NCBI GenBank assembly: GCA_965263355.1
Contig: CBDHHL010000032.1
Coordinates: 2,688,001-2,752,000, forward strand
Direction of reading: 5' to 3'
Source: Leptolyngbyaceae cyanobacterium
GTDB lineage: Bacteria; Cyanobacteriota; Cyanobacteriia; Phormidesmidales; Phormidesmidaceae
Length of the DNA stretch: 64,000 nucleotides
This document shows positions 49,808 to 64,000 of this stretch, one piece after another. Position 1 is the stretch's first letter; every line of letters begins with the position of its first letter. Under the pieces are notes generated by a model. That model made no database searches and was not told where the DNA came from. It saw only the letters and a list, made by a program, of their open reading frames with translations. Both the position numbers and the translations under genes were made by a program.

Positions 49808-50530
49808 GCGCGACTCGAAGTCGTTCGGGGGAGTTGGAGAGACTCCCAAATGACTCTCCCCGCCAGTGTTCAGGCGGATGTCCGCCTCGGAATGTTCGAC
49901 CAGTAATGGGAGGGCAGCATCAGCAGACGAGGTTAAATGTCGCAGTATCTTCTGAGCCAACAAGAGGGTGCAGGCTAGGGCAAGATTGCTAAGGATAACG
50001 CAAGTGAATCCTTGATGAGGCTTCGTTAATGTGAGTTCTCGAAATGGCTGATACGAGAATTTTGGAGCATATGGGGGTTGGTAGCGTCTAAATACCAATC
50101 AAGAACACCCCGCTCTCGGAGTAAAGAGGAATCCTAAAGCAATCATATCTCCACCCCGTGCGGAACGAGGAAACCCCGATAGAGTCCTGAAAATACTTTA
50201 TTTTCCAGGTAAGCGGAGGGCAACCAAAGCTGAACTCTCTAGCGGGCACAGGATATCCCAAGAAGCGAAAGCTGCCAGCCGAAAAACCGGAATTCATCAG
50301 ATAGGGCATTTGCCAACCTGAAACTCGTGGGATAGGTGATGGACGATGAAACTTAACTGATTGGGAAAAGTTAGGTGCAAGCTTCGGCTTGTAAACGTAA
50401 CCATCAGGACAATCTGAAAAGGTTGTTAAGAATCGGAAAAACTGAATTTCAAGACATTGCTTGATATACAGTGAAAGTTGTACGTACGGTTCTGAACGGG
50501 ATATATTTAAAACCTGCTTCCTTACCCGAC
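49808..50530 (+). mobile_element. ORF-less group II intron, copy 1 (small deletions incl. domain V)
   Basis: 5' GCGCG, 3' CCTTACCCGAC; near-identical to copy 2 but lacks GCCG in DV and part of DVI. Confidence 0.85.
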
Positions 50531-51298
50531 GCGCGACTCGAAGTCGTTCGGGGGAGTTGGAGAGACTCCCAAATGACTCTCCCCGCCAGTGTTCAGGCGG
50601 ATGTCCGCCTCGGAATGTTCGACCAGTAATGGGAGGGCAGCATCAGCAGACGAGGTTAAATGTCGCAGTATCTTCTGAGCCAACAAGAGGGTGCAGGCTA
50701 GGGCAAGATTGCTAAGGATAACGCAAGTGAATCCTTGATGAGGCTTCGTTAATGTGAGTTCTCGAAATGGCTGATACGAGAATTTTGGAGCATATGGGGG
50801 TTGGTAGCGTCTAAATGCCAATCAAGAACATCCCGCTCTCGGAGTAAAGAGGAATCCTAAAGCAATCATATCTCCACCCCGTGCGGAACGAGGAAACCCC
50901 GATAGAGTCCTGAAAATACTTTATTTTCCAGGTAAGCGGAGGGCAACCAAAGCTGAACTCTCTAGCGGGCACAGGATATCCCAAGAAGCGAAAGCTGCCA
51001 GCCGAAAGGCAACCGGAATTCATAACGGGGCAGATAGGGCATTTGCCCAACCTGAAAGGGGGCTGACGTGGGATAGGTGATGGACTTGAATGAAGGTGAG
51101 ATGAAACTTAACTGATTGGGAAAAGTTAGGTGCAAGCTTCGGCTTGTAAACGTAACCATCAGGACAATCTGAAAAGGTTGTTAAGAATCGGAAAAACTGA
51201 ATTTCAAGACATTGCTTGAGCCGTATACAGTGAAAGTTGTACGTACGGTTCTGAGGGGAGGAAGCGGGATATATTTAAAACCTGCTTCCTTACCCGAC
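50531..51298 (+). mobile_element. ORF-less group II intron, copy 2 (intact ribozyme core)
   Basis: 5' GCGCG; DV GAGCCGTATACAGTGAAAGTTGTACGTACGGTTC; DVI GGGGAGGAAGCGGG...CCTGCTTCCTTACCCGAC; no RT ORF. Confidence 0.92.
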
Positions 51299-51323
51299 AA
51301 TTGCGCAATATTCTTGTGGTAGA

Positions 51324-52190
51324 GTGAGAACCAATCATCCAACCCGACATCAGGTGAAAAGAATTGTACGAAAAGCAGCCCAGAAGATCCTAGGCTTTGA
51401 GCCAGCATTGCCGGCGTTAGAAGCCAAAGTAGCAACCAGCATCTCCGATAATCAACGATACCCCCAAGCCTGTCTTCGAGCTGCAAATGACTATCGACTC
51501 TTTAATTCATTTAGGCAGAGTCATGATTACACACAGATTCTTGAGCATGTCTCCCATGATCAAGGGGCTGCATATCTGGATGAGATAAAGAGATGGCCTG
51601 ACGTGTTTAGCGCACTTCCTGATATAGCCCATAACGATGATTACGGCGGGCCTGTTCTTCATTCTTATCCTGGAATCGCTCCGATATCTCCCAGCACACT
51701 TAGATATGCCAAAGTCTTGTGTGACTTATATAGCTTGTTTGGCTCTCTGGATAACTTTCATATTGCTGAGATTGGCGTTGGCTACGGAGGGCAATGCCGT
51801 GCCATAAATTCAACATCATCGCCAAGTAGTTACACACTTATTGACTTGCAGCCAGTTCTTCAGCTTTCACAGAGATACTTGGACTACTACATCTTGAATT
51901 CACAGCTAGTTTATTCAACCATGAACCAGCTGGCAACCCATGAATATGACTTACTGATTAGCAATTATGCCTTCACCGAGCTTCCAAGGGCAGTTCAGGA
52001 TGTTTATCTCTCTAGGGTCGTTCTGCCTTCGATTCGTGGGTATATTACATATAACCAGATATCTCCAGACTCGTTTATGTCCTATACATCAGATGAGCTG
52101 CTTGAGATGATTCCAGGCTCGGCCAGAGTCGACGAGGTTCCTCTCACTCATCCCATGAACTGTATAATTGTCTGGGGCCAGAATGGCTAA
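51324..52190 (+). CDS. putative sugar O-methyltransferase, cassette-like gene
   Basis: YTQILEHV, SPSTLRYAKV, IAEIGVGYGG, SNYAFTEL. The stop TAA lies inside the attC R'' box GGCTAAC. Confidence 0.82.
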   Translation: MRTNHPTRHQVKRIVRKAAQKILGFEPALPALEAKVATSISDNQRYPQACLRAANDYRLFNSFRQSHDYTQILEHVSHDQGAAYLDEIKRWPDVFSALPDIAHNDDYGGPVLHSYPGIAPISPSTLRYAKVLCDLYSLFGSLDNFHIAEIGVGYGGQCRAINSTSSPSSYTLIDLQPVLQLSQRYLDYYILNSQLVYSTMNQLATHEYDLLISNYAFTELPRAVQDVYLSRVVLPSIRGYITYNQISPDSFMSYTSDELLEMIPGSARVDEVPLTHPMNCIIVWGQNG

Positions 52191-52468
52191 CATAGGCCCT
52201 GAGGCGGACGAGGTCAATAGCAAATGCTAAAATTCTTTTTCTGCTTTAGCTTTAGCGCGGATTCAGACGTTCAAAATTGACCTAATAGTCAGGTGTTCAG
52301 GGAGACTGAACCTGCGCTATTAGATGGGGCTGCGTTGCTGAATGATCATTGATACGGGTTAGCTGTTCATAAGATATTTCTCCAAGTGACTGCATAGAGT
52401 GCTCGATCTTGTTTTGGTTGTTACTGTTTTTATTGCTTGTTTTCAAGTGCAATTTGTTCTTCTTGCAC

Positions 52469-53752
52469 TTATTGTTTAGGTTGTTGTTGAACGCCTAATA
52501 GCTTTACTAGTGGTGATTTTTTACGTCTCAGTGCAGCCAGATATTTCTCCTCGTCATAGGGTACACCATCTTGCCAACAACGCCAGAGAATTCTCCCCCA
52601 CTTATAGGCCAAGGCTCGAATCGCTTTTTGATGTGACTTACCCTTTAGTCGTTGTTGTTGATAAAACGCTTGTGACCAAACCGAGCGAGGCCTGGCATGA
52701 GCAACCCACTCGACAAAGGTTTGTCTTAGAAAGATGGGGCAAGACCAACGCCAATGAACCCATCGCTTTTTGCCACTCTCTTCTTTGACTGGCGCGATGC
52801 CAATGTAACTCAAAAAAGACTGAGCGCAATTAAAGCGAGTTCGGTCTTCACCAAAGGCCGCTAACAATCGTGGCGCTAAATGAGGCCCAGCCCCTGGCAA
52901 TGCCTTAAAAAGTTCTGCATCCGGCAGCGATTCAAATAACGAGGCAATTTGACGCTCAAACACAATCAATTGCGACAAGACTACTTTCAATAAAGCGACT
53001 AAGCCTTGCATTAACGCTTGGGCTGGAATGGTGATAGCGTCGTCTCGCGTCAAGGGTGGCCCAGCGTCTTGAATTTGCTGAGTTCGCCGTTGAATCGTGG
53101 TTTTGCGAATGATGTGATGGCTACGAAAGAAGTCTCTCAAGACATCAGCTGTAGCAGCTTGAGCCTCTTGTAAATTGGGAAACTGTTCAAGGAATTCACA
53201 AAACGCAATGGTGTCTTTATCTTCAAACCAGTCGAGCACTTGAGGAAAATAGGATTTGAGTGCGGCGGTGATCCGATTCGTCAGCCGGACCTTCTCACCC
53301 ACTAACATGCGACGGGACTCAACCCATTGTCTCAATGCACGATGCTTCGGACAACCTGATGTCCAGATATCAAGTTTTTCACCATGTTTTTGCATCAATT
53401 CGACGATCAGTTTGGCATCGATGGGATCCGATTTGGCCCGCGAGGGCTGAAACGCTTTGCGATAGTTCGCGACCGTTCGAGGATTAACGGGCACCAGCAC
53501 CAAATTCTCGTATTGACATAGGCCATAAAGGAGGGGGCCGCGTTTCTGCTCCAACCCAACCAGCAACTTGGACTCTCCATAGGTTTTTCGTAAGCGATTG
53601 ACCCAATCTGCAATGGATTGGGGCTTGGATTGAATCGTGCAATGCTCCCAGGTTTCGTTCTGGCAGTCATAGAGCGCAATATCATGTTTACGATCTGCCC
53701 AGTCAATCCCGATATAAGCCGCATATGCTGTTGGACTTTGATTGAGTTTCAT
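52469..53752 (-). CDS. IS110 family recombinase/transposase
   Basis: GIDWADRKHD, GLEQ, KSDPIDA (DEDD), LPGAGPHLA, GIAPVKEESGK. Confidence 0.95.
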   Translation of the reverse strand: MKLNQSPTAYAAYIGIDWADRKHDIALYDCQNETWEHCTIQSKPQSIADWVNRLRKTYGESKLLVGLEQKRGPLLYGLCQYENLVLVPVNPRTVANYRKAFQPSRAKSDPIDAKLIVELMQKHGEKLDIWTSGCPKHRALRQWVESRRMLVGEKVRLTNRITAALKSYFPQVLDWFEDKDTIAFCEFLEQFPNLQEAQAATADVLRDFFRSHHIIRKTTIQRRTQQIQDAGPPLTRDDAITIPAQALMQGLVALLKVVLSQLIVFERQIASLFESLPDAELFKALPGAGPHLAPRLLAAFGEDRTRFNCAQSFLSYIGIAPVKEESGKKRWVHWRWSCPIFLRQTFVEWVAHARPRSVWSQAFYQQQRLKGKSHQKAIRALAYKWGRILWRCWQDGVPYDEEKYLAALRRKKSPLVKLLGVQQQPKQ

Positions 53753-53804
53753 TGTGCTAAATTGAGGGTGTTTTTGTTTGACGGAGAGTCTGCCACCAGT
53801 CGCC

Positions 53805-54080
53805 TTGCGAAGTGATTATGGAAAGGGTTATTTCCCTGCTCCCTGAGGATTCGTTGGGCAGCGATTGGACTGGCTTGAAGGGCGATTCGATATGTTAGTA
53901 GTCATCTTCTGACTGGCGCTGCATAGTCGTCCCCCCAAGCTAGCAGATTCTCTCCTTTCTTGACTCTATGCTTTTTTCCAGATTTAGAACATCTAAAGGG
54001 AGGAGCGATACGATATGTTAGTAGACATCTATACTGTCGTCCAATGCATAGTCGTCTCCTCCCATTTTTCTATGCTCGTC
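53805..54080 (-). ncRNA. predicted IS110 bridge RNA with two target loops and one donor loop
   Basis: Hairpins 53998-54063 and 53873-53940 each carry CTAACAT (target). Hairpin 53808-53853 carries CCTCAGGG and CCATAAT (donor junction). Confidence 0.78.
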
Positions 54081-54260
54081 CCCCCATAATCCAGATGCAG
54101 AAGACGGGAGTATGGGCTGGCTTCACTGCCGAGATTCTGGCCCGCTTCTGATCTGGAGCGTTAGGCTGCATCCCATACAGAATCCAGTTCCCTACTGACT
54201 CCTCACTTCTGACTTCTCGCATCGAGAAACCGTCTCGCTTTATATTAATACCCTTGAAGC

Positions 54261-57200
54261 TTATTCCTCAGGGCAAGCTTCACGAATTGCCGCACGTACA
54301 GCATTCGCAAGTAGCTGAACTTGAGGAGATTTCATTATCCTATAGTGATTACCTGGAATATGAACAATACCAAACTCTCCTGTAAGCACTGTGTCCCAGC
54401 CCCGATCATCGGTTTCCTCCTCTGCAGAGCAGAGTATCACTCGACCACCATAGGGTTGCACCTGATATCGTGCTAATGCCGTCTGATTAGCTTTGAAGAT
54501 GCGGAATAGATAGGCCATTTGCGTAGGCGTCATTTCCGGTGGTAGTAAGTTCATCCCCTGGGCAACGGCAAAGAGGTGTTCCAGCTGAGCATTAGGTGCG
54601 AGTTTTGCCAGTTTCAATCGATCTAACGACAGCTCACTATCAAACAAACCATTTAAATCAGTGATTAAAGACTGTAAATCTGCCGTGCCAATTTCCTCTG
54701 ATGTCGCCGATTTTGATGCCTCTATAGGGCTGGCTATTACCTGTGGCGTATAGCTATCAATCAGTACAACAAGCGCTACAGCTTCTCCGATAGATTGAAG
54801 CTGTTGAGCCATTTCTATGGCAATAACACCGCCCATTGACCATCCTGCTAAGTAATAAGGGCCATGGGGTTGAACGCTTTTTAAGGCCTTAATATAAGTC
54901 ATGGCCATCGTTTTAATTGAGTCTAAAGGCGTAACGTTATGATATGGTTCTGGTGATTGAAGACCGTACAGCGGTTGGTCTCGACCCAAATGATGGGCTA
55001 ATTCGGCGTAGCAGAAAACATTTCCACCCACTGGATGAATACAAAAGAGTAAGGGCAAAGTTCCATGGGGCTGGATCGGAACGAGGGGAGAGTGGTCTAC
55101 AATCGCATTTTGGCTGTTCAGTAGTCGAGCTTGGGCTTCAATGGTGGGATCAGTAAAGAGCACTGGCAATGGTAAATTAACTCCCAACTCTTGTTCTACT
55201 TGAGCCATTAGTCGCACCGCTAACAGGGAATGTCCCCCTAGCTCAAAGAAATCATCGTGTACTCCGACACTATCAAGGTTGAGGACTGCCGACCAAATTT
55301 GGGATAGTTGAAATTCTAAAGTGGTACGGGGTGGGGTAAAACTTACAGGAAAAGAGAGATCGACTTTAGGCCGGGGAAGAGTGCGACGATCAACTTTACC
55401 ATTGGGCGTCAAAGGTATTGCCTCCAAACGGATAAATGCACTGGGCACCATATAAAGGGGTAACTTAGTTTTAACGAATTCGCGCAACTGACCAATTGTC
55501 GATTCTCTCTTAGTGACAACATAGGCAATCAGGCGTTTATCTTCTGGGATATCTTCTCGAACAGTAACAACTGTTGAACTGACGTCTGGGTGTGTAGCTA
55601 AAACTGTTTCTATTTCTCCAAGCTCTATACGAAAACCCCGGATTTTAACTTGATTGTCAATTCGGCCCAGAAACTCAATGTTCCCATCTTGAAGATAACG
55701 TGCTTTATCTCCAGTATCATAAAGAATAGCATCTGGGTGAACACTAAAGGGATTTTGAACAAACTTCTGGGCAGTTTTTATCGGATCGTCATACCCCACA
55801 GCCAAACATTCTCCTCCAATATATAAAAAGCCAGGCACCCCTATCGGGCAGGGGGTCAGGCAAGAATCTAAGATATAATACTGTGCATTTTGGATGGGTC
55901 TGCCATAGGGAATGCTGGTTAAATTCTGATTGATAGATTCGATCCGATAATAATTCGACCAAATAGTTGCTTCGGTTGCTCCACCCAGACTGACAAGAAG
56001 AATGCTGGGAAATACTTTCTTCACCTGCTCAGGCAAGGCTACTGGAATCCAGTCACCACTCAAGAAGCCTAACCGGAGGGAACTGTTTGCTATGGATTTA
56101 GATGGCAAGAACGAAATCAATTGTTGAAGGGTTGCTGGGGTAGAATCCCAAAAGGTAATTGACTCCTCACAGAGAATATCAGCCACCTTCCGAGGATCTT
56201 GTAATTCTAAATCTGAAGCTACTCGAATTGACCCACCAGCCGCTAGCAAGCCAAAGATATCGTAAACAGATAAGTCAAAACACAAAGAGGTAACAAACAG
56301 TAGGCGATCGTCAACACTCACATTAAAAGTCTGGTTGACCCAATCAATTAAGTTGACAGCAGATCTATGACGTACGATGACGCCTTTGGGTACACCAGTA
56401 GACCCCGACGTATAGATAACATAAGCCGTATTATTCGGCATTACTGATGTTTCGGGATTTCGAGTGGACATTTGTGATAAATGCCAGTTTGTTGCCCAGT
56501 GTTTCTGTAGTACAGTCAAAGCAACTTGCTGTCTATCATTGCTTTCAGTGTTATGTTTTTTAATGATCACATCGTATCGATAGCGAAGTTCATTTTCAAA
56601 TCCCTGCTCTCGCTTAAGAACCGAAATCTCAGCAATAGGCTCTAATTGAACAGCTAAATCCCAGAAAAATTTCTCATCTACATATAGCTCACTACCCAGA
56701 TTAGTTTTCGCCTGGATAGGGTGTTCACCATCCTGATTAGACCTAAAGGCTATCAATGATTGTTCAAACTCGTCTTTGCGGCGAGCGTCCATGATATCTG
56801 ATAGCAAGATCGCTCCTCCTGGAGCTAAGCGTCTTACAGCAAGATCAAGAACGTGCTGTAAATAAAAAGCTCCTGGGAAAAACTGAACCGTACTCGCGAA
56901 GATAATAAGGTCAAAGGGGCCATCTTCAATGGAACCAATCTCATCCGCAAAAGCCGTCACGAGCTTAATAAAATTCCAATTATTCTCCCGAAGAATCTCA
57001 GCGTTACGTGCTTGAGTGATTTCTGAAGGATCAACACCAACATAGAGATCAACCTCAGGAGCAATTGCGAACATAATTTCTCCTGAACCACAGCCAATCT
57101 CTAGCACTCGTTTCCCGCTTCCAAAATATGGTTTCGCTAATCCAACAACGTGACATTTATACTCATCAACTTCGGACTCGGAAAAAGGCTGACTGGTATA

Positions 57201-60200
57201 GCTGCTAATAAATCCACCTGCCGTGACGCGATCGCTAGCCTGCTGGGCTACCCAATCCCATAACGATCGCACAGCCTTACGATCAATTTTTTCAGGATGG
57301 GGGGTGGGATCATCTATATCCAGGCAGATGACATGGGTTAGTTGTGAGTATTTCCATAGCAACTCTTGTGCAGTTCGCAGGTATTTTTGTTGGGTGATAA
57401 GACAGCTTACTGCTTGGGATGTAATAATCTTTTCTACTCGCGCAATTGGCCATTGAGGATCAAAAGGAATGTAAGCTCCACCGGCTTTTATTGCACCCAT
57501 CACGGCAGTTGGAATATTCGCAGAACGGTTCAAATAGATACCAATCTTCACTTCTGGGCCAACTCCGAGTGTTTGTAAGTAGTGTGCGAGTTGATTGGCG
57601 CGAACGTTTAGCTCCTGATAAGTCAGTTGTCTCTGATTAAACAGAATTGCCACTGCATCTGGACGCTGTTTCACTTGGGCTTCAAATAACTGATGAATGC
57701 ATTTATCCTTAGGGTAAGGGGCTTCAGTTTGATTCCATTCAACCAACAATTGGTGCCGTTCTATAGCCGTGAGCAAGGGTAGTTCTGTCACTGATTGTTG
57801 AGGGTTAGCGACAATCGCCCTCAATAGGGTCTCAAAATGCCCCACCGCTCGCTGAATCGTTGCTGTATCAAACAGGTCTTGATTATATTCCCAATAACCA
57901 ATTAGCCTATTATCCCGTTCCTCCAAGGAGAGAAACAGGTCAAACTTGGCGCGACCACTTTCCATTTGCAGCCACTCAAATCTAATTCCTGGCAGATTTA
58001 AGGGTTCCATGGGTGCATTTTGCAGGGCGAACATGACCTGAAAAAGAGGCGTATGACTGAGACTGCGTTCCGGTTGTAGTGCTTCTATTAACTGTTCAAA
58101 GGGCAAGTCTTGGTGGGCATGGGCATCTAACGCGGTTTGCCGGACTTGGGCCAAGAGTTGAGGAAAGGTCAGATTGTCGTCGAAGCGCGATCGTAACACC
58201 AACGTATTCACAAAGAAGCCAATTAATCCTTCAATTTCACTACGATTGCGGTTGGCAATGGGGGTGCCCACCAAAATATCGGTTTGACCGCTGTAGCGGT
58301 AGAGTAGGCTACTAAAAGCCGCAAACAACGTCATAAAAAGGGTTACCCCTGATTGTTGACTCAGATGTTTAAGCTGTTCCGTAAGGGTATGATCCAGTTG
58401 AAAAAAGATGCGATCGCCTTGATTAGACTGCACCGTCGGTCGAGGATAATCCGTAGGCAAGTCCAATAATGGGGGCGCATCGGCTAACTGTTGCCGCCAA
58501 TACTCCAATTGTGGCGCAAGAGATTGAGCGGTGGCAGGTTGTCGCTGCCAAGCGGCAAAGTCGGCATATTGAATGGCCAGTTCAGGTAAGGGTGAGGAGT
58601 CCCCTTCGATGAATGCTCCGTAGAGCACCTCCAATTCATGGACCAATACTCCCGTAGACCAACCATCGGTAATAATATGATGCATAGTGAGAAGCAACAT
58701 ATAGTCATCCTTCGCCAATTGCATCAACATGACCCGTAACAAGGTATCGTGAGCCAGATCAAAGGGTTGTTGTACCGCATCTTGACCCAGCTGTTGGACC
58801 TCAGCCATTTGTTGTTTTGGCTCAACATGCTGTAAATCTACTATCGGCAGTGGTAAATCTCTATGTGGCGATATTACCCGGAGCGGTTTCCCCTCAACAG
58901 ATTTGAAATTTGTTCGTAAGCTATCGTGTCGTCGGACAATTTCTAGTAGAGCTTGATGGAGTGCCTCCACATGCAGCGTCCCTGACAAACGTAAGCCCTC
59001 CTGCTCATTGTAGGCGACACTCTGGTCTTGTAATTGATCTAAAAACCAGAGACGTTGCTCAGCGAAGGATAGGGGTAAGTCTCCTTGACGGGACATCTGT
59101 TGAATCAGTGTTCGCTCTGAGGGCGTAGGTTTGGATTCGGTGTCCAGAATATCTTGGCTCAGTTGGGCGATGGTAGGAGATTCAAATAACCGATGCAGCG
59201 ACAGTTCCCGTTGGAAAACATCCCGCACTCGTGAAATTAGCTGGGTGGCTTGAATTGAATCTCCGCCCAGCATAAAAAAATTATCCAAAACCCCAATTTC
59301 GTTCAGCCCCAACACGTCGGCCCAAATATTAGCTAATAGCTCCTCCATAGGGGTCCGGGGATTCACCAGCTTGACATCTAGAACAGGACGGGAGCGATCG
59401 GGGGCTGGCAAATGCTGACGATCGACCTTACCGCTGGGGGTAAGGGGCAATTGATCGAGGACCACAAATGCCGAGGGAACCATGTAATTGGGCAGGGTTT
59501 CCGTCAGAAACTGACGCACCTGAGGAATCAGCTGATTTGTTTTCTGGCCACTGTATGGTTGGTTCGCATAGGCGTGCCAAGGTTTGGCCTTATTAGGAAT
59601 CTCACCGGGGGGCTGATCAACGGCTCCATGAGCCCTATCACCCAGGATAACGTTTGTGCCCTGCCGTACAAAGATGACATCGTAGTAGCCCTCATTGCCT
59701 TTACTATCCCAAGTGAGATGAACTTGGTACGGAATTTGATCTTGCAACGTCCACCAGACTTCCGGTTCAATGGCCTTGCTCTTGGCATCGTGTAAGGTAA
59801 TCTCTTGGCGAAGTTCCTTTACCGTTGGGGGACAATGATCCACATTTGACAATAGCGACAGGGCGATAACGTCAGACCCAATTCGGGCATTCGGCACATG
59901 GTTGACCACTAATAGGTCAGGGGTCATGTCCACTAGTTTTTGGCGGATGGCATGGATTGCCTCCTCGCCATCTTCTTCACACCAGTCCAGAAAAACAGGT
60001 GCGGTAGGTGTGGCAAATTCTTTATCGATGTGCAACACCACATCGTAACGAAATCGGGTCAGCTCATTTTGATGATATCCCCGCTTTAGGTGAATGTCTA
60101 CATGGCTAATGCGGGGCAGATAGGCCTTTAATGCTGTGAAAAACTCAGGATCAACCATCAATCGTTGTTCACGGGTGCGACGATCGCGAATACGTCTGCG

Positions 60201-62243
60201 TAGGTCTGCTACCGGGAGAGAATCTGGCGATTGATAGAGCTGCACTGAGGTATGGAACATTTCCAACAACGGTAAACTCAAAATATCTCCCAGGAAAATT
60301 TGTCCGCCTGGTTGAATTCTATCCACTGCGGTTTCAATAACTGACACCAAATAATCAATACTGGGGAAGAATTGAATCACTGAATTAGAGATAGCTGTAT
60401 CAAAGGATGTCGTCACAATCTCTCCCAGGGTATGGGCAGCAGCCTGTTGCAGAACTACAGATGCTGCAACTGAAGGTTCAAGGATTTGACCGGCCTTAAG
60501 TTGTCGCTCTAGATAGCGAATGGCCTCACCGGATAAATCTGTAGCATAGTAGTGTTGACACTTAGGTGCCATGCGAAAAAGCAGTAGCCCTGTGCCACAG
60601 CCAATTTCTAAAAGGCGCTGGGGTTGCAATGATAAGATTCGCTCTACCGTATAGTCCACCCATTCCTGTACATGATTTGGGTCCAGATCTGTGCCTGTGT
60701 AGGAGTCGTTCCAGCCGCCAATGTGAAAATCAGCATCCTGCTCCTGATCAGGTTGAATATAGGCTTCATCCCAAATTTGCCGCCATTGTTCCGTTTGTTC
60801 AACGACATCCTGAGTTGCCTTGACCTTAACCTCAGAGCCGGAAACAACATAGGCTACTAAGCGCTTTTGACCGCTGGGTTCTGCTCGCGCTGTTACAACA
60901 GCTTGGGCAATATCAGGATGTTGTAACAGGGTTGCTTCGATTTCTTCCAACTCAATGCGATAGCCCCGTATCTTAACTTGGTGATCAATACGGCCTAAAC
61001 ATTCAATGGTGCCATCGGTATGGTACCGGGCTAAATCTCCAGTTTTATAAAGGCGATCACCCTCCTCTAAATCAGCGTCCTGGGCAAAGGGACTGGGAAT
61101 AAATTTTTTAGCGGTCAACTCCGGACGATTGAGATATCCTCGAGCGACCCCTATGCCCCCAATGTGCAATTCTCCAACTTCACCAACAGCGACAGGGGTT
61201 TGATTCTCATCTAGAATGTAAGCCTGGGTATTACTAATCGTCCGCCCAATAGGGATGGTCGCATCCGCCGATTGCACCCGATGTATCGTGGCCCATACCG
61301 TAATTTCAGTAGGACCATATAAATTCCACAACGATCCCCCCTTAGGTAATAACTGGGCCGCTAGCTCTGGTGATAAGCGGTCCCCAGTAGAAATGATTTT
61401 CAAGTCACGACACCCTGACCATTTAGCATTCATGAGCATTTGCCAGGTCGCAGGGGTAGCTGACATCACTGTCACACGGTGTTGATGAATCAACTGAATT
61501 AACTGATCAGGATCTTGGGTTGCTGTTTGACTGGCCACGACCACCTTACCGCCAACGGTCAATGGACCAAGCAATTCTGGAACTGAAACGTCGAAAGAAA
61601 TGGTTGTAACTGCAATAGACGTATCCGTGTCCCTTAACCCTGGGCAAATGGCAATCGCCAATAGTAGATTCACCACGGAACGATGAGCGATCTGTACCCC
61701 CTTAGGTTTTCCGGTCGAACCAGAGGTGTAGATAATGTAGGCTAAGTTACTAGGTACAGCAGTAGAAATGGGATTAATGGGAGAATGTTGGCCGATGTGT
61801 TGTTTAGTGCTACCAAGGCAGATTAGTGTAATGTTCTTGGCAAGGTGTATCTGGACATTAGTGGCTGGCGATTGAGTTACAATAATTTTTAGACCCGCAT
61901 CTTGCACCATAAAAGCAAGGCGATCACTAGGATAGGCTGGATCTAAAGGAACATAAGTGCCACCAGCTTTCATGATGCCGAGCATCGCAACGACCATTTC
62001 TAAGGAGCGTTCAATGCAAAGTCCCACCAGTACCTCTGGACCTACCCCCAAGGATTGCAGATAATGGGCAAGTTGATTGGCCTGTTGATTTAATTCCTGA
62101 TAGGTAAGTTGCTGCTCCTCAAAAACCAGTGCCACAGCATCCGGAGCCTGCATCACTTGGGCTTCAAACATTTCATGAATGCATCGATTCCAAGATGTGC
62201 TGGTATCAGTATTGCGCATTTCTGAGGCGTTAGCTTCTTGCAT
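54261..62243 (-). CDS. two-module NRPS: A(MT)-T-C-A(MT)-T-TE
   Basis: YTSGSTGKPKG and YTSGSTGVPKG (A3); LEIGCGTG and LEIGCGSG (MT); GGDS and GGHS (T); HHIITDGWS (C); GWSMGG (TE). Confidence 0.95.
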   Translation of the reverse strand: MQEANASEMRNTDTSTSWNRCIHEMFEAQVMQAPDAVALVFEEQQLTYQELNQQANQLAHYLQSLGVGPEVLVGLCIERSLEMVVAMLGIMKAGGTYVPLDPAYPSDRLAFMVQDAGLKIIVTQSPATNVQIHLAKNITLICLGSTKQHIGQHSPINPISTAVPSNLAYIIYTSGSTGKPKGVQIAHRSVVNLLLAIAICPGLRDTDTSIAVTTISFDVSVPELLGPLTVGGKVVVASQTATQDPDQLIQLIHQHRVTVMSATPATWQMLMNAKWSGCRDLKIISTGDRLSPELAAQLLPKGGSLWNLYGPTEITVWATIHRVQSADATIPIGRTISNTQAYILDENQTPVAVGEVGELHIGGIGVARGYLNRPELTAKKFIPSPFAQDADLEEGDRLYKTGDLARYHTDGTIECLGRIDHQVKIRGYRIELEEIEATLLQHPDIAQAVVTARAEPSGQKRLVAYVVSGSEVKVKATQDVVEQTEQWRQIWDEAYIQPDQEQDADFHIGGWNDSYTGTDLDPNHVQEWVDYTVERILSLQPQRLLEIGCGTGLLLFRMAPKCQHYYATDLSGEAIRYLERQLKAGQILEPSVAASVVLQQAAAHTLGEIVTTSFDTAISNSVIQFFPSIDYLVSVIETAVDRIQPGGQIFLGDILSLPLLEMFHTSVQLYQSPDSLPVADLRRRIRDRRTREQRLMVDPEFFTALKAYLPRISHVDIHLKRGYHQNELTRFRYDVVLHIDKEFATPTAPVFLDWCEEDGEEAIHAIRQKLVDMTPDLLVVNHVPNARIGSDVIALSLLSNVDHCPPTVKELRQEITLHDAKSKAIEPEVWWTLQDQIPYQVHLTWDSKGNEGYYDVIFVRQGTNVILGDRAHGAVDQPPGEIPNKAKPWHAYANQPYSGQKTNQLIPQVRQFLTETLPNYMVPSAFVVLDQLPLTPSGKVDRQHLPAPDRSRPVLDVKLVNPRTPMEELLANIWADVLGLNEIGVLDNFFMLGGDSIQATQLISRVRDVFQRELSLHRLFESPTIAQLSQDILDTESKPTPSERTLIQQMSRQGDLPLSFAEQRLWFLDQLQDQSVAYNEQEGLRLSGTLHVEALHQALLEIVRRHDSLRTNFKSVEGKPLRVISPHRDLPLPIVDLQHVEPKQQMAEVQQLGQDAVQQPFDLAHDTLLRVMLMQLAKDDYMLLLTMHHIITDGWSTGVLVHELEVLYGAFIEGDSSPLPELAIQYADFAAWQRQPATAQSLAPQLEYWRQQLADAPPLLDLPTDYPRPTVQSNQGDRIFFQLDHTLTEQLKHLSQQSGVTLFMTLFAAFSSLLYRYSGQTDILVGTPIANRNRSEIEGLIGFFVNTLVLRSRFDDNLTFPQLLAQVRQTALDAHAHQDLPFEQLIEALQPERSLSHTPLFQVMFALQNAPMEPLNLPGIRFEWLQMESGRAKFDLFLSLEERDNRLIGYWEYNQDLFDTATIQRAVGHFETLLRAIVANPQQSVTELPLLTAIERHQLLVEWNQTEAPYPKDKCIHQLFEAQVKQRPDAVAILFNQRQLTYQELNVRANQLAHYLQTLGVGPEVKIGIYLNRSANIPTAVMGAIKAGGAYIPFDPQWPIARVEKIITSQAVSCLITQQKYLRTAQELLWKYSQLTHVICLDIDDPTPHPEKIDRKAVRSLWDWVAQQASDRVTAGGFISSYTSQPFSESEVDEYKCHVVGLAKPYFGSGKRVLEIGCGSGEIMFAIAPEVDLYVGVDPSEITQARNAEILRENNWNFIKLVTAFADEIGSIEDGPFDLIIFASTVQFFPGAFYLQHVLDLAVRRLAPGGAILLSDIMDARRKDEFEQSLIAFRSNQDGEHPIQAKTNLGSELYVDEKFFWDLAVQLEPIAEISVLKREQGFENELRYRYDVIIKKHNTESNDRQQVALTVLQKHWATNWHLSQMSTRNPETSVMPNNTAYVIYTSGSTGVPKGVIVRHRSAVNLIDWVNQTFNVSVDDRLLFVTSLCFDLSVYDIFGLLAAGGSIRVASDLELQDPRKVADILCEESITFWDSTPATLQQLISFLPSKSIANSSLRLGFLSGDWIPVALPEQVKKVFPSILLVSLGGATEATIWSNYYRIESINQNLTSIPYGRPIQNAQYYILDSCLTPCPIGVPGFLYIGGECLAVGYDDPIKTAQKFVQNPFSVHPDAILYDTGDKARYLQDGNIEFLGRIDNQVKIRGFRIELGEIETVLATHPDVSSTVVTVREDIPEDKRLIAYVVTKRESTIGQLREFVKTKLPLYMVPSAFIRLEAIPLTPNGKVDRRTLPRPKVDLSFPVSFTPPRTTLEFQLSQIWSAVLNLDSVGVHDDFFELGGHSLLAVRLMAQVEQELGVNLPLPVLFTDPTIEAQARLLNSQNAIVDHSPLVPIQPHGTLPLLFCIHPVGGNVFCYAELAHHLGRDQPLYGLQSPEPYHNVTPLDSIKTMAMTYIKALKSVQPHGPYYLAGWSMGGVIAIEMAQQLQSIGEAVALVVLIDSYTPQVIASPIEASKSATSEEIGTADLQSLITDLNGLFDSELSLDRLKLAKLAPNAQLEHLFAVAQGMNLLPPEMTPTQMAYLFRIFKANQTALARYQVQPYGGRVILCSAEEETDDRGWDTVLTGEFGIVHIPGNHYRIMKSPQVQLLANAVRAAIREACPEE

Positions 62244-62378
62244 ATCCTGTACATCTAGTTACTGCAGTATCCTATACTAGGGGATTAGGAGTATGAAGAG
62301 TGTTTTTCATCACTGCATAAAAAAAGGATACAAGACGTCGCCAAAGCACCGTCAAAGACAGGCGGAGATGCCTAACAT

Positions 62379-64000
62379 AGTCCCTGAGGCGGACGAGGTC
62401 AATAGCAAAGGCTAAACTTCTTTTTCTAGTTAAGCTTGAGTCTGTATTCAGACATGCAGGATTAACCTGATACTCAGTTGTTCAGGGAGGAGATTGTTCT
62501 CTCTCAGAGAGGGCTGCTTTGCTGTATGACCGTGAATACGGGTTAGCTGTTCATCGGATATTGCTCCAAGTGATTACATCGAGTGCTCGATCTTGTTGTT
62601 GTAGTTGTAGTAGTTGTTGTTATCTGCCTTTAAAGTATTACTTGTTATTTTTGTGATTGTTGTTTAGGTTGTTGTTGAACGCCCAATAACTTTGCTAGTG
62701 GGGACTTTTTGCGTCTCAGTACAGCTATGTATTTTTCTTCATCATAAGGGACACCATCTTGCCAACAGCGCCAGAGAATTCTTCCCCACTTATAGGCCAA
62801 GGCACGAATCGCTTTAGGATGACTTTTACCTGATTGCTTCTGCTGTAGATAAAAGGCTTGGGACCAAGTCGAATGTCGACGCGCTTGATCGACCCATTCA
62901 ACAAAGGTTTGTCTGAGGAAAATTGGACATGACCAACGCCAATGAACCCAGCACTTTTTGCCGCTTTCCTCCTTGACAGGGGCAATACCGATATAGCTCA
63001 TAAAGGCCTGAGCCGACGTAAAGCGCGTGCGGTCTTCGCCAAAGGCGACTAACAGTCGTGGCGCTAGATGCGGTCCGGCTCCCGGTAAGGCCTGAAATAA
63101 CTCGGCATCTGGCAATGACTCAAACAGGTTAGCAATCTGTTGGTTAAATTCAGTTAATTGTTGTAAAACAACCTTAAGCAGAGTGATTAGACTTAAAGTC
63201 AGTGTTTTAGCCGGTATCACAATGGCGTCATCCTCAGTCAGCGGTGGGCCTGCGTCTTTGATTTGCTGAATCCTACGCTGAATCGTCGTCCGTCGAACAA
63301 CATGATGGCGATGGAAAAACTGAGTGATTGTTTCAGGGGTCGCTGCTTGGGCCGCTTTGACATCGTCGAACTGCTCAATAAACTCACAAAAGACCTGCGT
63401 ATCTTTATCTCTAAACCAATCAAGAACTTGAGGAAAATAGGATTTGAGTGATGCGGTGATACGGTTAGTCAAACGCACCTTTTCGCCCACTAACATCCGA
63501 CGCGATTCTACCCATTGTCTGAGGGCACGATGTTCAGGGCACCCTGCCACCCAAGCCTTTAGTTTATTGCCATGCTTACGCATTAACTCCACCAGAATAC
63601 GGGCATCTACGGGGTCGGATTTGGCTCGTGATGGCTGAAACGCTTTTCGATAGTTGGCCACCGTTCTGGGATTAATGGGAAACAGCACTAAATTGTCATA
63701 CTGACACAGCGCATAGAGTAGAGGCCCTCGCTGTTGTTCAAGAGCAACCGCAATTTTGCCAGGACCATACCGTTCTCGGAGTTGTGTGACCCAATCCAGA
63801 ATAGCTTGAGGATGGTTTTGAATAATACTATTTTTCCAGGTGTCTGTTGCACAGTCATATACCGCAATGTCATTTTTTCGGTCAGCCCAGTCAATGCCCA
63901 CATAGGCCACATAGTCAATCGACTCGATGGCCTTAGGCATAGGTGTTTCTGAAGCTGAGTCTGTAGTTATGGTTGGGGCTATTGTCATTGTGTTAGATTA
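62379..64000 (-). mobile_element. second IS110-family element (left end outside window) inserted after GCCTAAC-AT
   Basis: End AGTCCCTGAGGCGGACGAGGTCAATAGC is homologous to 52194 onward. Confidence 0.85.
62645..63988 (-). CDS. IS110 family recombinase/transposase (diverged paralogue of 52469-53752)
   Basis: GIDWADRKND, ALEQ, KSDPVDA, GIAPVKEESGK. Confidence 0.95.
   Translation of the reverse strand: MTIAPTITTDSASETPMPKAIESIDYVAYVGIDWADRKNDIAVYDCATDTWKNSIIQNHPQAILDWVTQLRERYGPGKIAVALEQQRGPLLYALCQYDNLVLFPINPRTVANYRKAFQPSRAKSDPVDARILVELMRKHGNKLKAWVAGCPEHRALRQWVESRRMLVGEKVRLTNRITASLKSYFPQVLDWFRDKDTQVFCEFIEQFDDVKAAQAATPETITQFFHRHHVVRRTTIQRRIQQIKDAGPPLTEDDAIVIPAKTLTLSLITLLKVVLQQLTEFNQQIANLFESLPDAELFQALPGAGPHLAPRLLVAFGEDRTRFTSAQAFMSYIGIAPVKEESGKKCWVHWRWSCPIFLRQTFVEWVDQARRHSTWSQAFYLQQKQSGKSHPKAIRALAYKWGRILWRCWQDGVPYDEEKYIAVLRRKKSPLAKLLGVQQQPKQQSQK

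Follow-up and report, generated by a model that had tools for sequence, protein, structure and literature searches.

A cyanobacterial IS110-group insertion sequence whose leader probably encodes a bridge RNA with two alternative target loops for attC sites

We analyzed a 64,000-nucleotide (nt) stretch of a Leptolyngbyaceae cyanobacterium genome (contig CBDHHL010000032.1, positions 2,688,001 to 2,752,000, forward strand; hereafter the window) and focused on an insertion sequence of the IS110 family whose non-coding leader carries three guide-bearing loops. The element belongs to the IS110 group, and its leader probably specifies a bridge RNA that combines two alternative target-binding loops (A, B) with a single donor-binding loop (C). 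The anatomy of the loops, the exact boundaries of the element, the conservation of the layout among relatives, covariation in the stems and a statistical match of insertion flanks to either loop were all observed. We infer that the leader is transcribed, that the RNA assembles with the recombinase and that the two target loops are used on an either-or basis. In the bridge RNAs described so far, as far as the texts consulted go, a single target loop accompanies a single donor loop. A natural, conserved RNA whose two target loops are programmed differently would show that multiplexed guides are tolerated in one molecule, and hints at a way for a site-specific element to deal with a family of targets as variable as the attC sites.

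The boundaries of the element (Table 1) emerged from public sequencing runs. Contigs of 9233 and 8944 nt from runs X1 and X2, which stem from one sample, lead straight from 51900-52191 into 54089-54500 and skip 1897 bases, exactly 52192-54088, with two letters that fit either side. The junction 52191/54089 therefore delimits the element, fixes the core as AT and defines the empty site as TGCATCTGG-AT-GTTAG, in its wider context ...TCTTCTGCATCTGG-AT-GTTAGCCATTC... With a slash marking the boundary, the left end reads TGCATCTGG-AT/TATGGGGGG, the core being followed by TATGG, and the right end reads CCGCCTCAGGGCCT-AT/GTTAGCC, where CCTCAGGGCCT-AT precedes GTTAG. Joined in silico, the ends give CCTCAGGGCCT-AT-TATGG. 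The window thus carries the element at a site that the X1 and X2 contigs of a same-labelled organism show empty, and the insertion, being polymorphic, was probably recent. In run X3 the left end of the element continues into another flank, GGTCGGTGTGCATTGGG-AT, and in that run the flank contig ends at the element boundary; the body of the element is found in the runs on separate contigs with higher word depth.

The recombinase combines an N-terminal DEDD/RuvC-like domain with a C-terminal Tnp domain, and its gene is preceded by a non-coding stretch of 336 nt (left terminus 54088, start codon 53752), which provides the long, structured left end of an IS110-group element. Judged by its sequence, the element appears to be an IS110-group bridge RNA system in every feature tested except the canonical layout, in which a 5' stem-loop precedes a single target loop and a single donor loop: here a second target-type module is present and a plain 5' hairpin is absent.

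The initial annotation of this DNA had placed three loops on the minus strand, of which A and B would share a scaffold and the right guide CTAACAT and differ in their left guides, while C would match both sides of the donor junction. Reading the sequence bore this out to the letter, and reads of both element ends agreed with the donor match. Modules A and B are built on a common scaffold, GACGACTA-(10-nt guide)-stem-loop-stem-TACTAACATATCG, plus a closing stem. The right guide, identical in both, is the reverse complement of AT+GTTAG. In loop C, CCTCAGGG matches the right end of the element and CCATAAT, read as its reverse complement, equals AT+TATGG at the left end; C thus matches the joined ends, and it is invariant across 33 aligned sequences. 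In target and donor loops alike, the guide on the 5' side is in sense with the left flank, and that on the 3' side complements core and right flank, the loop geometry given for bridge RNAs in the text of Durrant et al. (2024, PMC11208160). The right guides take in the core, which is not clearly the case for the left ones. Two other roles for loop B were considered and rejected. As a donor loop it should match the left end TATGG, and its right guide matches the target side GTTAG instead; as an excision-specific hybrid loop it should match the right end of the element, to which its left guide has no match.

Table 1. Positions of the element, its predicted RNA and associated sites in the window
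Feature	Position	Strand	Details and basis
IS110-family insertion sequence	52192-54088	minus	1897 bp counting one AT core copy; contig junctions and end reads
Core dinucleotide AT, left junction	54089-54090	minus	other copy at 52192-52193
attC-like target, left part	54089-54166	minus	GCCTAAC ... TCTTCTGCATCTGG-AT; right part GTTAGCC at 52191-52185
Right-end promoter half (predicted)	52194-52217	minus	-35 TTGACC (52217-52212) and 17-nt spacer
Recombinase gene, 427 aa	52469-53752	minus	Pfam DEDD_Tnp_IS110 (PF01548), E 4e-27; Transposase_20 (PF02371), E 3e-15
Predicted bridge RNA, about 300 nt, ends unmapped	53782-54085	minus	33-sequence consensus fold; single-sequence fold, z -3.83
Module A, first target-binding-loop-like stem-loop	54063-53998	minus	outer stem GGGAGGAG/CTCCTCCC, inner stem GACA/TGTC
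Module A guides	left 54048-54039; right 54021-54015	minus	left TGCATTGGAC, right CTAACAT; sequence, conserved in relatives
Module B, second target-binding-loop-like stem-loop	53940-53873	minus	outer stem GCTTGGGGGG/CCCTTCAAGC, inner stem GTCA/TGAC
Module B guides	left 53923-53914; right 53898-53892	minus	left TGCAGCGCCA, right CTAACAT; sequence, stem covariation, flank fit
Loop C, donor-binding loop	53853-53808	minus	left guide 53848-53841 CCTCAGGG; right guide 53821-53815 CCATAAT
Second, related element	62377-64000	minus	open reading frame 62645-63988, recombinase 76% identical; left end and RNA beyond the window

The leader is strongly structured. Its 338 nt fold at -102.8 kcal/mol compared with -83.6 ± 5 kcal/mol for shuffled sequences (z = -3.83), and none of 100 shuffles folded as low. 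We aligned 33 two-loop leaders and folded the alignment with RNAalifold. The consensus has 44 pairs, 16 of them with compensatory changes, which are strongest in the outer stem of module B and in a stem around B and C together (alignment columns 148-152/332-336). Both sides of the outer stem of B have changed in 15 of the 33 sequences at columns 156/246, in eight at 161/240 and in six at 155/247; the stems of module A are nearly invariant and hence uninformative on covariation. GGGG(G/A)G at the 5' end of the RNA is predicted to pair with CTCTCC at its 3' end, closing the whole molecule. An Rfam scan of 50000-64000 with E values up to 1 returned group II intron matches only and no bridge RNA family.

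The two-loop layout recurs among relatives of the element. A protein-seeded scan of one genome per species yielded 59 loci, nearly all cyanobacterial, and a pattern scan of metagenome contigs added 52 further loci; six repeated loci were dropped, and our parser then found 83 elements in which a left terminus could be recognised together with one module or more. Two modules are present in 47 of these, at +21 to +33 and at +143 to +159 from the terminus, the exception being an interrupted copy (L012) with module B at +257 and about 100 nt inserted inside module A (1067-1400). The first module only was found in 12 elements. Nine of them lie on contigs that end within 272 nt, one was not parsed (L089), one is degenerate, including its right guides (L017, 1146-1400), and one, L025, is genuinely single-module: the module is directly followed by loop C (1285-1420), and the flank does not fit the element's own guide. 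One module was found in the remaining 24. These include 23 of a distinct one-loop type that keeps the canonical layout, with a plain 5' hairpin at the place of module A and then a module at +63 to +65, and L069, whose first module was missed by the search pattern. Inspection by eye pointed to a further one-loop subgroup (L024, L026 and L047) and to proteobacterial relatives that have a different single target loop. Three target modules were seen in none of the 83 parsed elements.

A maximum-likelihood tree of 29 recombinases (27 loci and both copies in the window) places all 15 two-loop rows in one 18-row clade with support of 100/97; in the 32 loci outside the tree, our script found no uninterrupted open reading frame (ORF) of at least 370 aa from the conserved N-terminal motif. 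The clade also includes L025 and two rows lacking upstream DNA, namely L015 and the second copy in the window. Its sister group consists of one-loop elements, with further one-loop and proteobacterial rows outside. Taking the midpoint root, on which the direction depends, the second target loop would have been gained once from a one-loop ancestor and then kept, and L025 looks like a secondary loss. A concern raised with the initial annotation was that loop B might be unique to this copy and decaying. Degenerate or interrupted modules do occur in some copies (L012, L017 and L025), and a chance or decaying local duplication nevertheless strikes us as highly improbable for module B: the 47 two-module elements, their position in one supported clade and the covariation of the stems refute it, and the left-guide window of B is as variable as that of A.

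Both left-guide windows vary as guides would, on fixed scaffolds. The six variable positions of the left guide carry 1.10 bits in A and 1.02 bits in B, compared with 0.17 and 0.24 bits in the flanking scaffold and 0.10 and 0.19 bits in the right guide. We counted 22 distinct left guides for A and 22 for B, with one sequence common to both sets, and the two guides differ within every element in which both were parsed.

The initial annotation implied that insertion sites should track either left guide. For this comparison we used two-loop elements with a full 16-nt flank. Four duplicates were dropped, as was L053 (the same as L063), whose flank is the right end of another element, leaving 41 insertions. 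The 10-nt guides were scored against the flanks ungapped, with the 3' end of the guide placed from -1 (beyond the left boundary) to three bases short of it. The mean match out of 10 was 6.41 for an element's own A guide, 5.76 for its own B guide and 7.15 for the better of the two. When guide pairs were permuted among the 41 insertions, the latter value fell to 6.45 ± 0.14, and none of 20,000 permutations reached 7.15. The contribution of each loop was separable: permuting A with B fixed gave p < 5e-5, and permuting B with A fixed gave p = 0.006. At the 21 flanks with an A fit of six or less, own B guides matched 6.24 positions compared with 5.71 ± 0.19 for permuted guides (p = 0.005). A was the better-fitting loop at 23 flanks and B at 14, with four ties. 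The 20 one-loop relatives behaved likewise, their own guide matching 6.9 positions versus 5.92 ± 0.20 after permutation, kinship again being ignored. Covariation of guide and target across orthologues, as expected of the IS110 group, is thus seen in the two-loop and the one-loop set.

Flanks of the (T/A)CCA type provide a simpler view of the same relationship. Six of eight such flanks belong to elements with a TCCA guide, compared with five of 33 other flanks (two-by-two table 28, 5 and 2, 6; Fisher p = 0.002), and in five of the six cases the TCCA guide is located in loop B. The Leptothermofonsia genome offers a comparison within one genome, with five copies, too few for a within-genome statistic, that have identical leaders (A = TGCAGTGAGC, B = TCCAACGTCA). 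One copy sits at an A-type flank, TACAGTGATT, with matches of 7/10 to A and 4/10 to B, and another at a B-type flank, TCCAACAACAGT, with 8/10 to B and 4/10 to A. Two copies share the flank ACCAACGCAGT (6/10 to B, 4/10 to A), and the fifth abuts the right end of another element. Those nearest relatives of the window copy that have its B guide also fall on both sides. The flank of L001, a near relative, equals guide A at 9/9 positions up to the boundary, as judged by eye in a register outside the scoring range, and that of L014, likewise a near relative, matches A at 9/10; B fits better in L016 (7 vs 5) and L002 (6 vs 4). In the window itself, the occupied site had been said to fit loop A with one extra base, and indeed guide A (TGCATTGGA) is matched at nine positions by the flank TGCAT(C)TGGA if the base in brackets is bulged.

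Two observations on the flanks stand apart from this analysis. L054 and L075 have near-identical, unusual left flanks, TGCCATGCAGT and TGCCATGTAGT. The matching, equally unusual A guide TGCCATGAGC is present only in L075, and L054 carries TGCATTGGGC; guide turnover after insertion or two separate events could account for the mismatch. In L053 (1160-1200) the two-loop element directly follows the right end of another element type (...CCGCCTCAGAGGCG-AT/TATGG) and the flank matches neither target guide, which could reflect a tandem arrangement or insertion beside a resident one-loop-type element.

We considered whether a single loop might guide insertion, with the other being a duplicated module that serves in recombinase loading, RNA stability, replacement of the 5' stem-loop or regulation. 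Canonical bridge RNAs begin with a 5' stem-loop, according to the text of Durrant et al. (2024, PMC11208160), and the plain hairpin that one-loop relatives have at the place of module A would suit such a role. Moreover, own B guides taken alone are not significantly above permuted ones (5.76 vs 5.59, p = 0.13). Such a division of labour would leave unexplained why both left-guide windows vary like guides, why B guides add to a fit that A guides already provide, why TCCA-type flanks belong to elements whose TCCA guide is mostly located in loop B, and why identical elements occupy A-type and B-type sites in one genome, and we regard it as unlikely.

The reading with two alternative target loops has its own difficulties. 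As just noted, the support for B is conditional on A, and since most B guides are variants of GCGC(A/C/T)A, tests of B have lower power. The permutation tests ignore kinship among elements. Two (T/A)CCA-type flanks, those of L006 and L080, occur without a TCCA guide, and the flank in the window, scored ungapped, matches A and B equally (6/10 each) and does not discriminate between them. Natural flanks match only 5 to 9 of 10 guide positions, and no perfect matches to the exact predicted targets were present among them. The spacing between the matched left guide and the crossover is variable, at 0, 1 or 2 nt (in one case -1), which a rigid base-pairing model would not predict. Furthermore, the left guides for target and donor seem to end 2 nt before the crossover and to leave out the core, unlike in IS621, all four guides of which include it according to the text of Durrant et al. 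(2024, PMC11208160). These points count against two alternative loops. Six metatranscriptome runs contained 0.03 of the sequence words, which speaks neither for nor against transcription.

The target has the hallmarks of an integron attC site, a class of sites defined by inverted core sites R'' (..TAAC) and R' (GTTAG..). In the window, GCCTAAC (54166-54160) and GTTAGCC form such an inverted pair, and the rejoined flanks fold as a long imperfect hairpin, TAAC...GTTAG, with two single-base bulges as extrahelical bases. Its folding energy is -18.5 (top strand) and -20.9 kcal/mol (bottom strand), compared with -13.2 ± 2.9 for shuffled sequences. The site is a lone attC-like hairpin directly after the stop codon of a gene for a 2660-aa non-ribosomal peptide synthetase (NRPS). 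A pattern search found no unoccupied attC in the window, and none of the 35 window ORFs scanned is an integrase. The flanks in relatives are built alike, TAACG...CAGCGG...CCGCTGCA-N6-TT/GTTAG(G/C)C. Four unoccupied TGCA-N6-TT-GTTAG sites, about 1 kb apart on one strand, are found in Leptolyngbya sp. Cla-17 (contig C4, 61.6-64.7 kb); these sites were picked by eye, the loose attC pattern not being enriched over a reversed control in three genomes (35 vs 84, 32 vs 56 and 74 vs 100). In the same genome the four-site array also appears on contig C5 (27.1-30.2 kb) in opposite orientation, either as a duplicated region or as an assembly duplicate. An integron integrase above the TIGR02249 cut-off (469 bits) is encoded in the Leptothermofonsia genome about 20 kb from one copy, and an integrase fragment lies beside L012. 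The hairpin agrees with the initial proposal that the element is aimed at attC sites, and the arrays and integrase in genomes of relatives would be in keeping with it. The left guide appears to read the cassette-specific arm of attC, which varies from site to site. As this arm differs between sites, a second guide would be useful.

The mechanism that we propose would start with excision, which would join the ends and thereby create a promoter from which the RNA would be transcribed. A recombinase dimer on loop C would then hold the joined ends, and a dimer on loop A or on loop B would hold an attC site matching that loop. Synapsis of both dimers and strand exchange at the AT core would follow. 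In the target, the shared right guide would pair with T/AT+GTTAG, the conserved R' core of attC, and each left guide, T(G/C)CA followed by six variable bases, would read the cassette-specific arm beside the core. Since either loop could hold the attC that it fits, one element could use two classes of attC sites. Less easily accommodated is that the left junctions retain the dinucleotide of the target (TT, GT or AT), with right junctions always showing AT. The promoter is predicted from sequence. When the right end is joined to the left end in silico, a -10 hexamer TATTAT arises across the junction, and the arrangement TTGACN-17/18-TATTAT is obtained with 27 of 30 right ends from relatives and the window. 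This agrees with the junction promoter of IS110 elements, which is rebuilt on the joined ends as reported in the text of Durrant et al. (2024, PMC11208160).

Alternatively, A and B might act together: two dimers could synapse and recombine two attC sites, or both loops could bind one attC, so that cassettes would be rearranged besides insertion. Recombination between donors by loop-bearing complexes of IS622 (Perry et al. 2025 preprint) and partial strand transfer supported by a target-loop-only RNA of CazIS110-1 (Sun et al. 2025 preprint), as far as the accessible parts of these preprints report, lend some plausibility to joint action, as does the fact that A and B guides never coincide within an element. 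Ordinary insertion explains the flanks, though, and no rearranged cassette junction was seen, although none was looked for. Since A and B agree in both sense and right guide, they do not read the two arms of a single attC. We therefore hold joint action to be quite unlikely. Equally improbable in our estimation is its most far-reaching form, in which an A-dimer and a B-dimer synapsing different attC sites would make the element an integrase-independent, RNA-programmed shuffler of cassettes (deletion, inversion, capture) in cyanobacteria. If A x B synapsis were true, it would be a natural template for multi-target bridge RNAs.

Returning to two alternative target loops, the closest described systems are IS621 and IS622 (Durrant et al. 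2024, PMC11208160; Hiraizumi et al. 2024, 2026). To the extent that the available text covers them, they share with the present element a two-domain recombinase, an RNA encoded in a long left end, separate target and donor loops, a promoter on joined ends (here predicted), a 2-nt core and insertion without target duplication. They differ in that our element has two target-type loops and not one, no plain 5' stem-loop, an AT instead of a CT core, left guides that appear to end about 2 nt short of the crossover, and the arm of an attC hairpin in place of a repetitive extragenic palindrome (REP)-type target. ISKpn4 and ISPst6, IS1111 elements with a seekRNA (Siddiquee et al. 2024, PMC11187229), belong to the same superfamily of RNA-guided recombinases and likewise insert at one end of attC. 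In these IS1111-group elements the guide RNA lies downstream of the gene, the inverted repeats are subterminal and no second target loop is described in the text available, whereas the element studied here is of the IS110 group and has an upstream RNA with two target loops. It thereby documents an IS110-group, not an IS1111-group, lineage homing to integron attC sites in cyanobacteria.

Work on divided bridge RNAs is also relevant. In the parts of the preprints that could be consulted, target and donor loops supplied as separate RNAs work (Perry et al. 2025 preprint), and the loops therefore act as modular units; in CazIS110-1 a natural RNA with the target loop only is active (Sun et al. 2025 preprint). 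With loops that are separable and modular in both cases, an extra target loop is mechanistically plausible. Both cases concern one target loop apart from the donor loop, in an engineered or truncated transcript, and not two programmed loops in one natural RNA. A 2026 Evo-PIN preprint mentions, without details in that section, many models that deviate from IS621. No natural bridge RNA with two target loops turned up in print in the literature searched, of which figures and bioRxiv supplements were not visible. For bridge editing at several targets, or between targets, the arrangement would also offer a ready-made scaffold.

The surroundings of the element contain further mobile DNA. Just downstream, a match to domains V/VI of a group II intron occupies 51216-51298 on the plus strand (66.4 bits, E 2e-11); a second copy at 50461-50530 on the same strand is deleted in part and scores lower (28.1 bits). 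The ORFs around these matches are small and have no Pfam match, and the same holds for the adjoining 288-aa ORF (51324-52190) as regards Pfam. On the other side, the NRPS gene (54261-62243, minus strand; domain order A-MT-T-C-A-MT-T-TE by Pfam) is flanked by the element and by its related second copy, the right end of which reads CCTCAGGGACT-AT-GTTAGGC. The two IS110-family elements have the same orientation, and judging from this arrangement the pair could mobilise or delete the NRPS gene.
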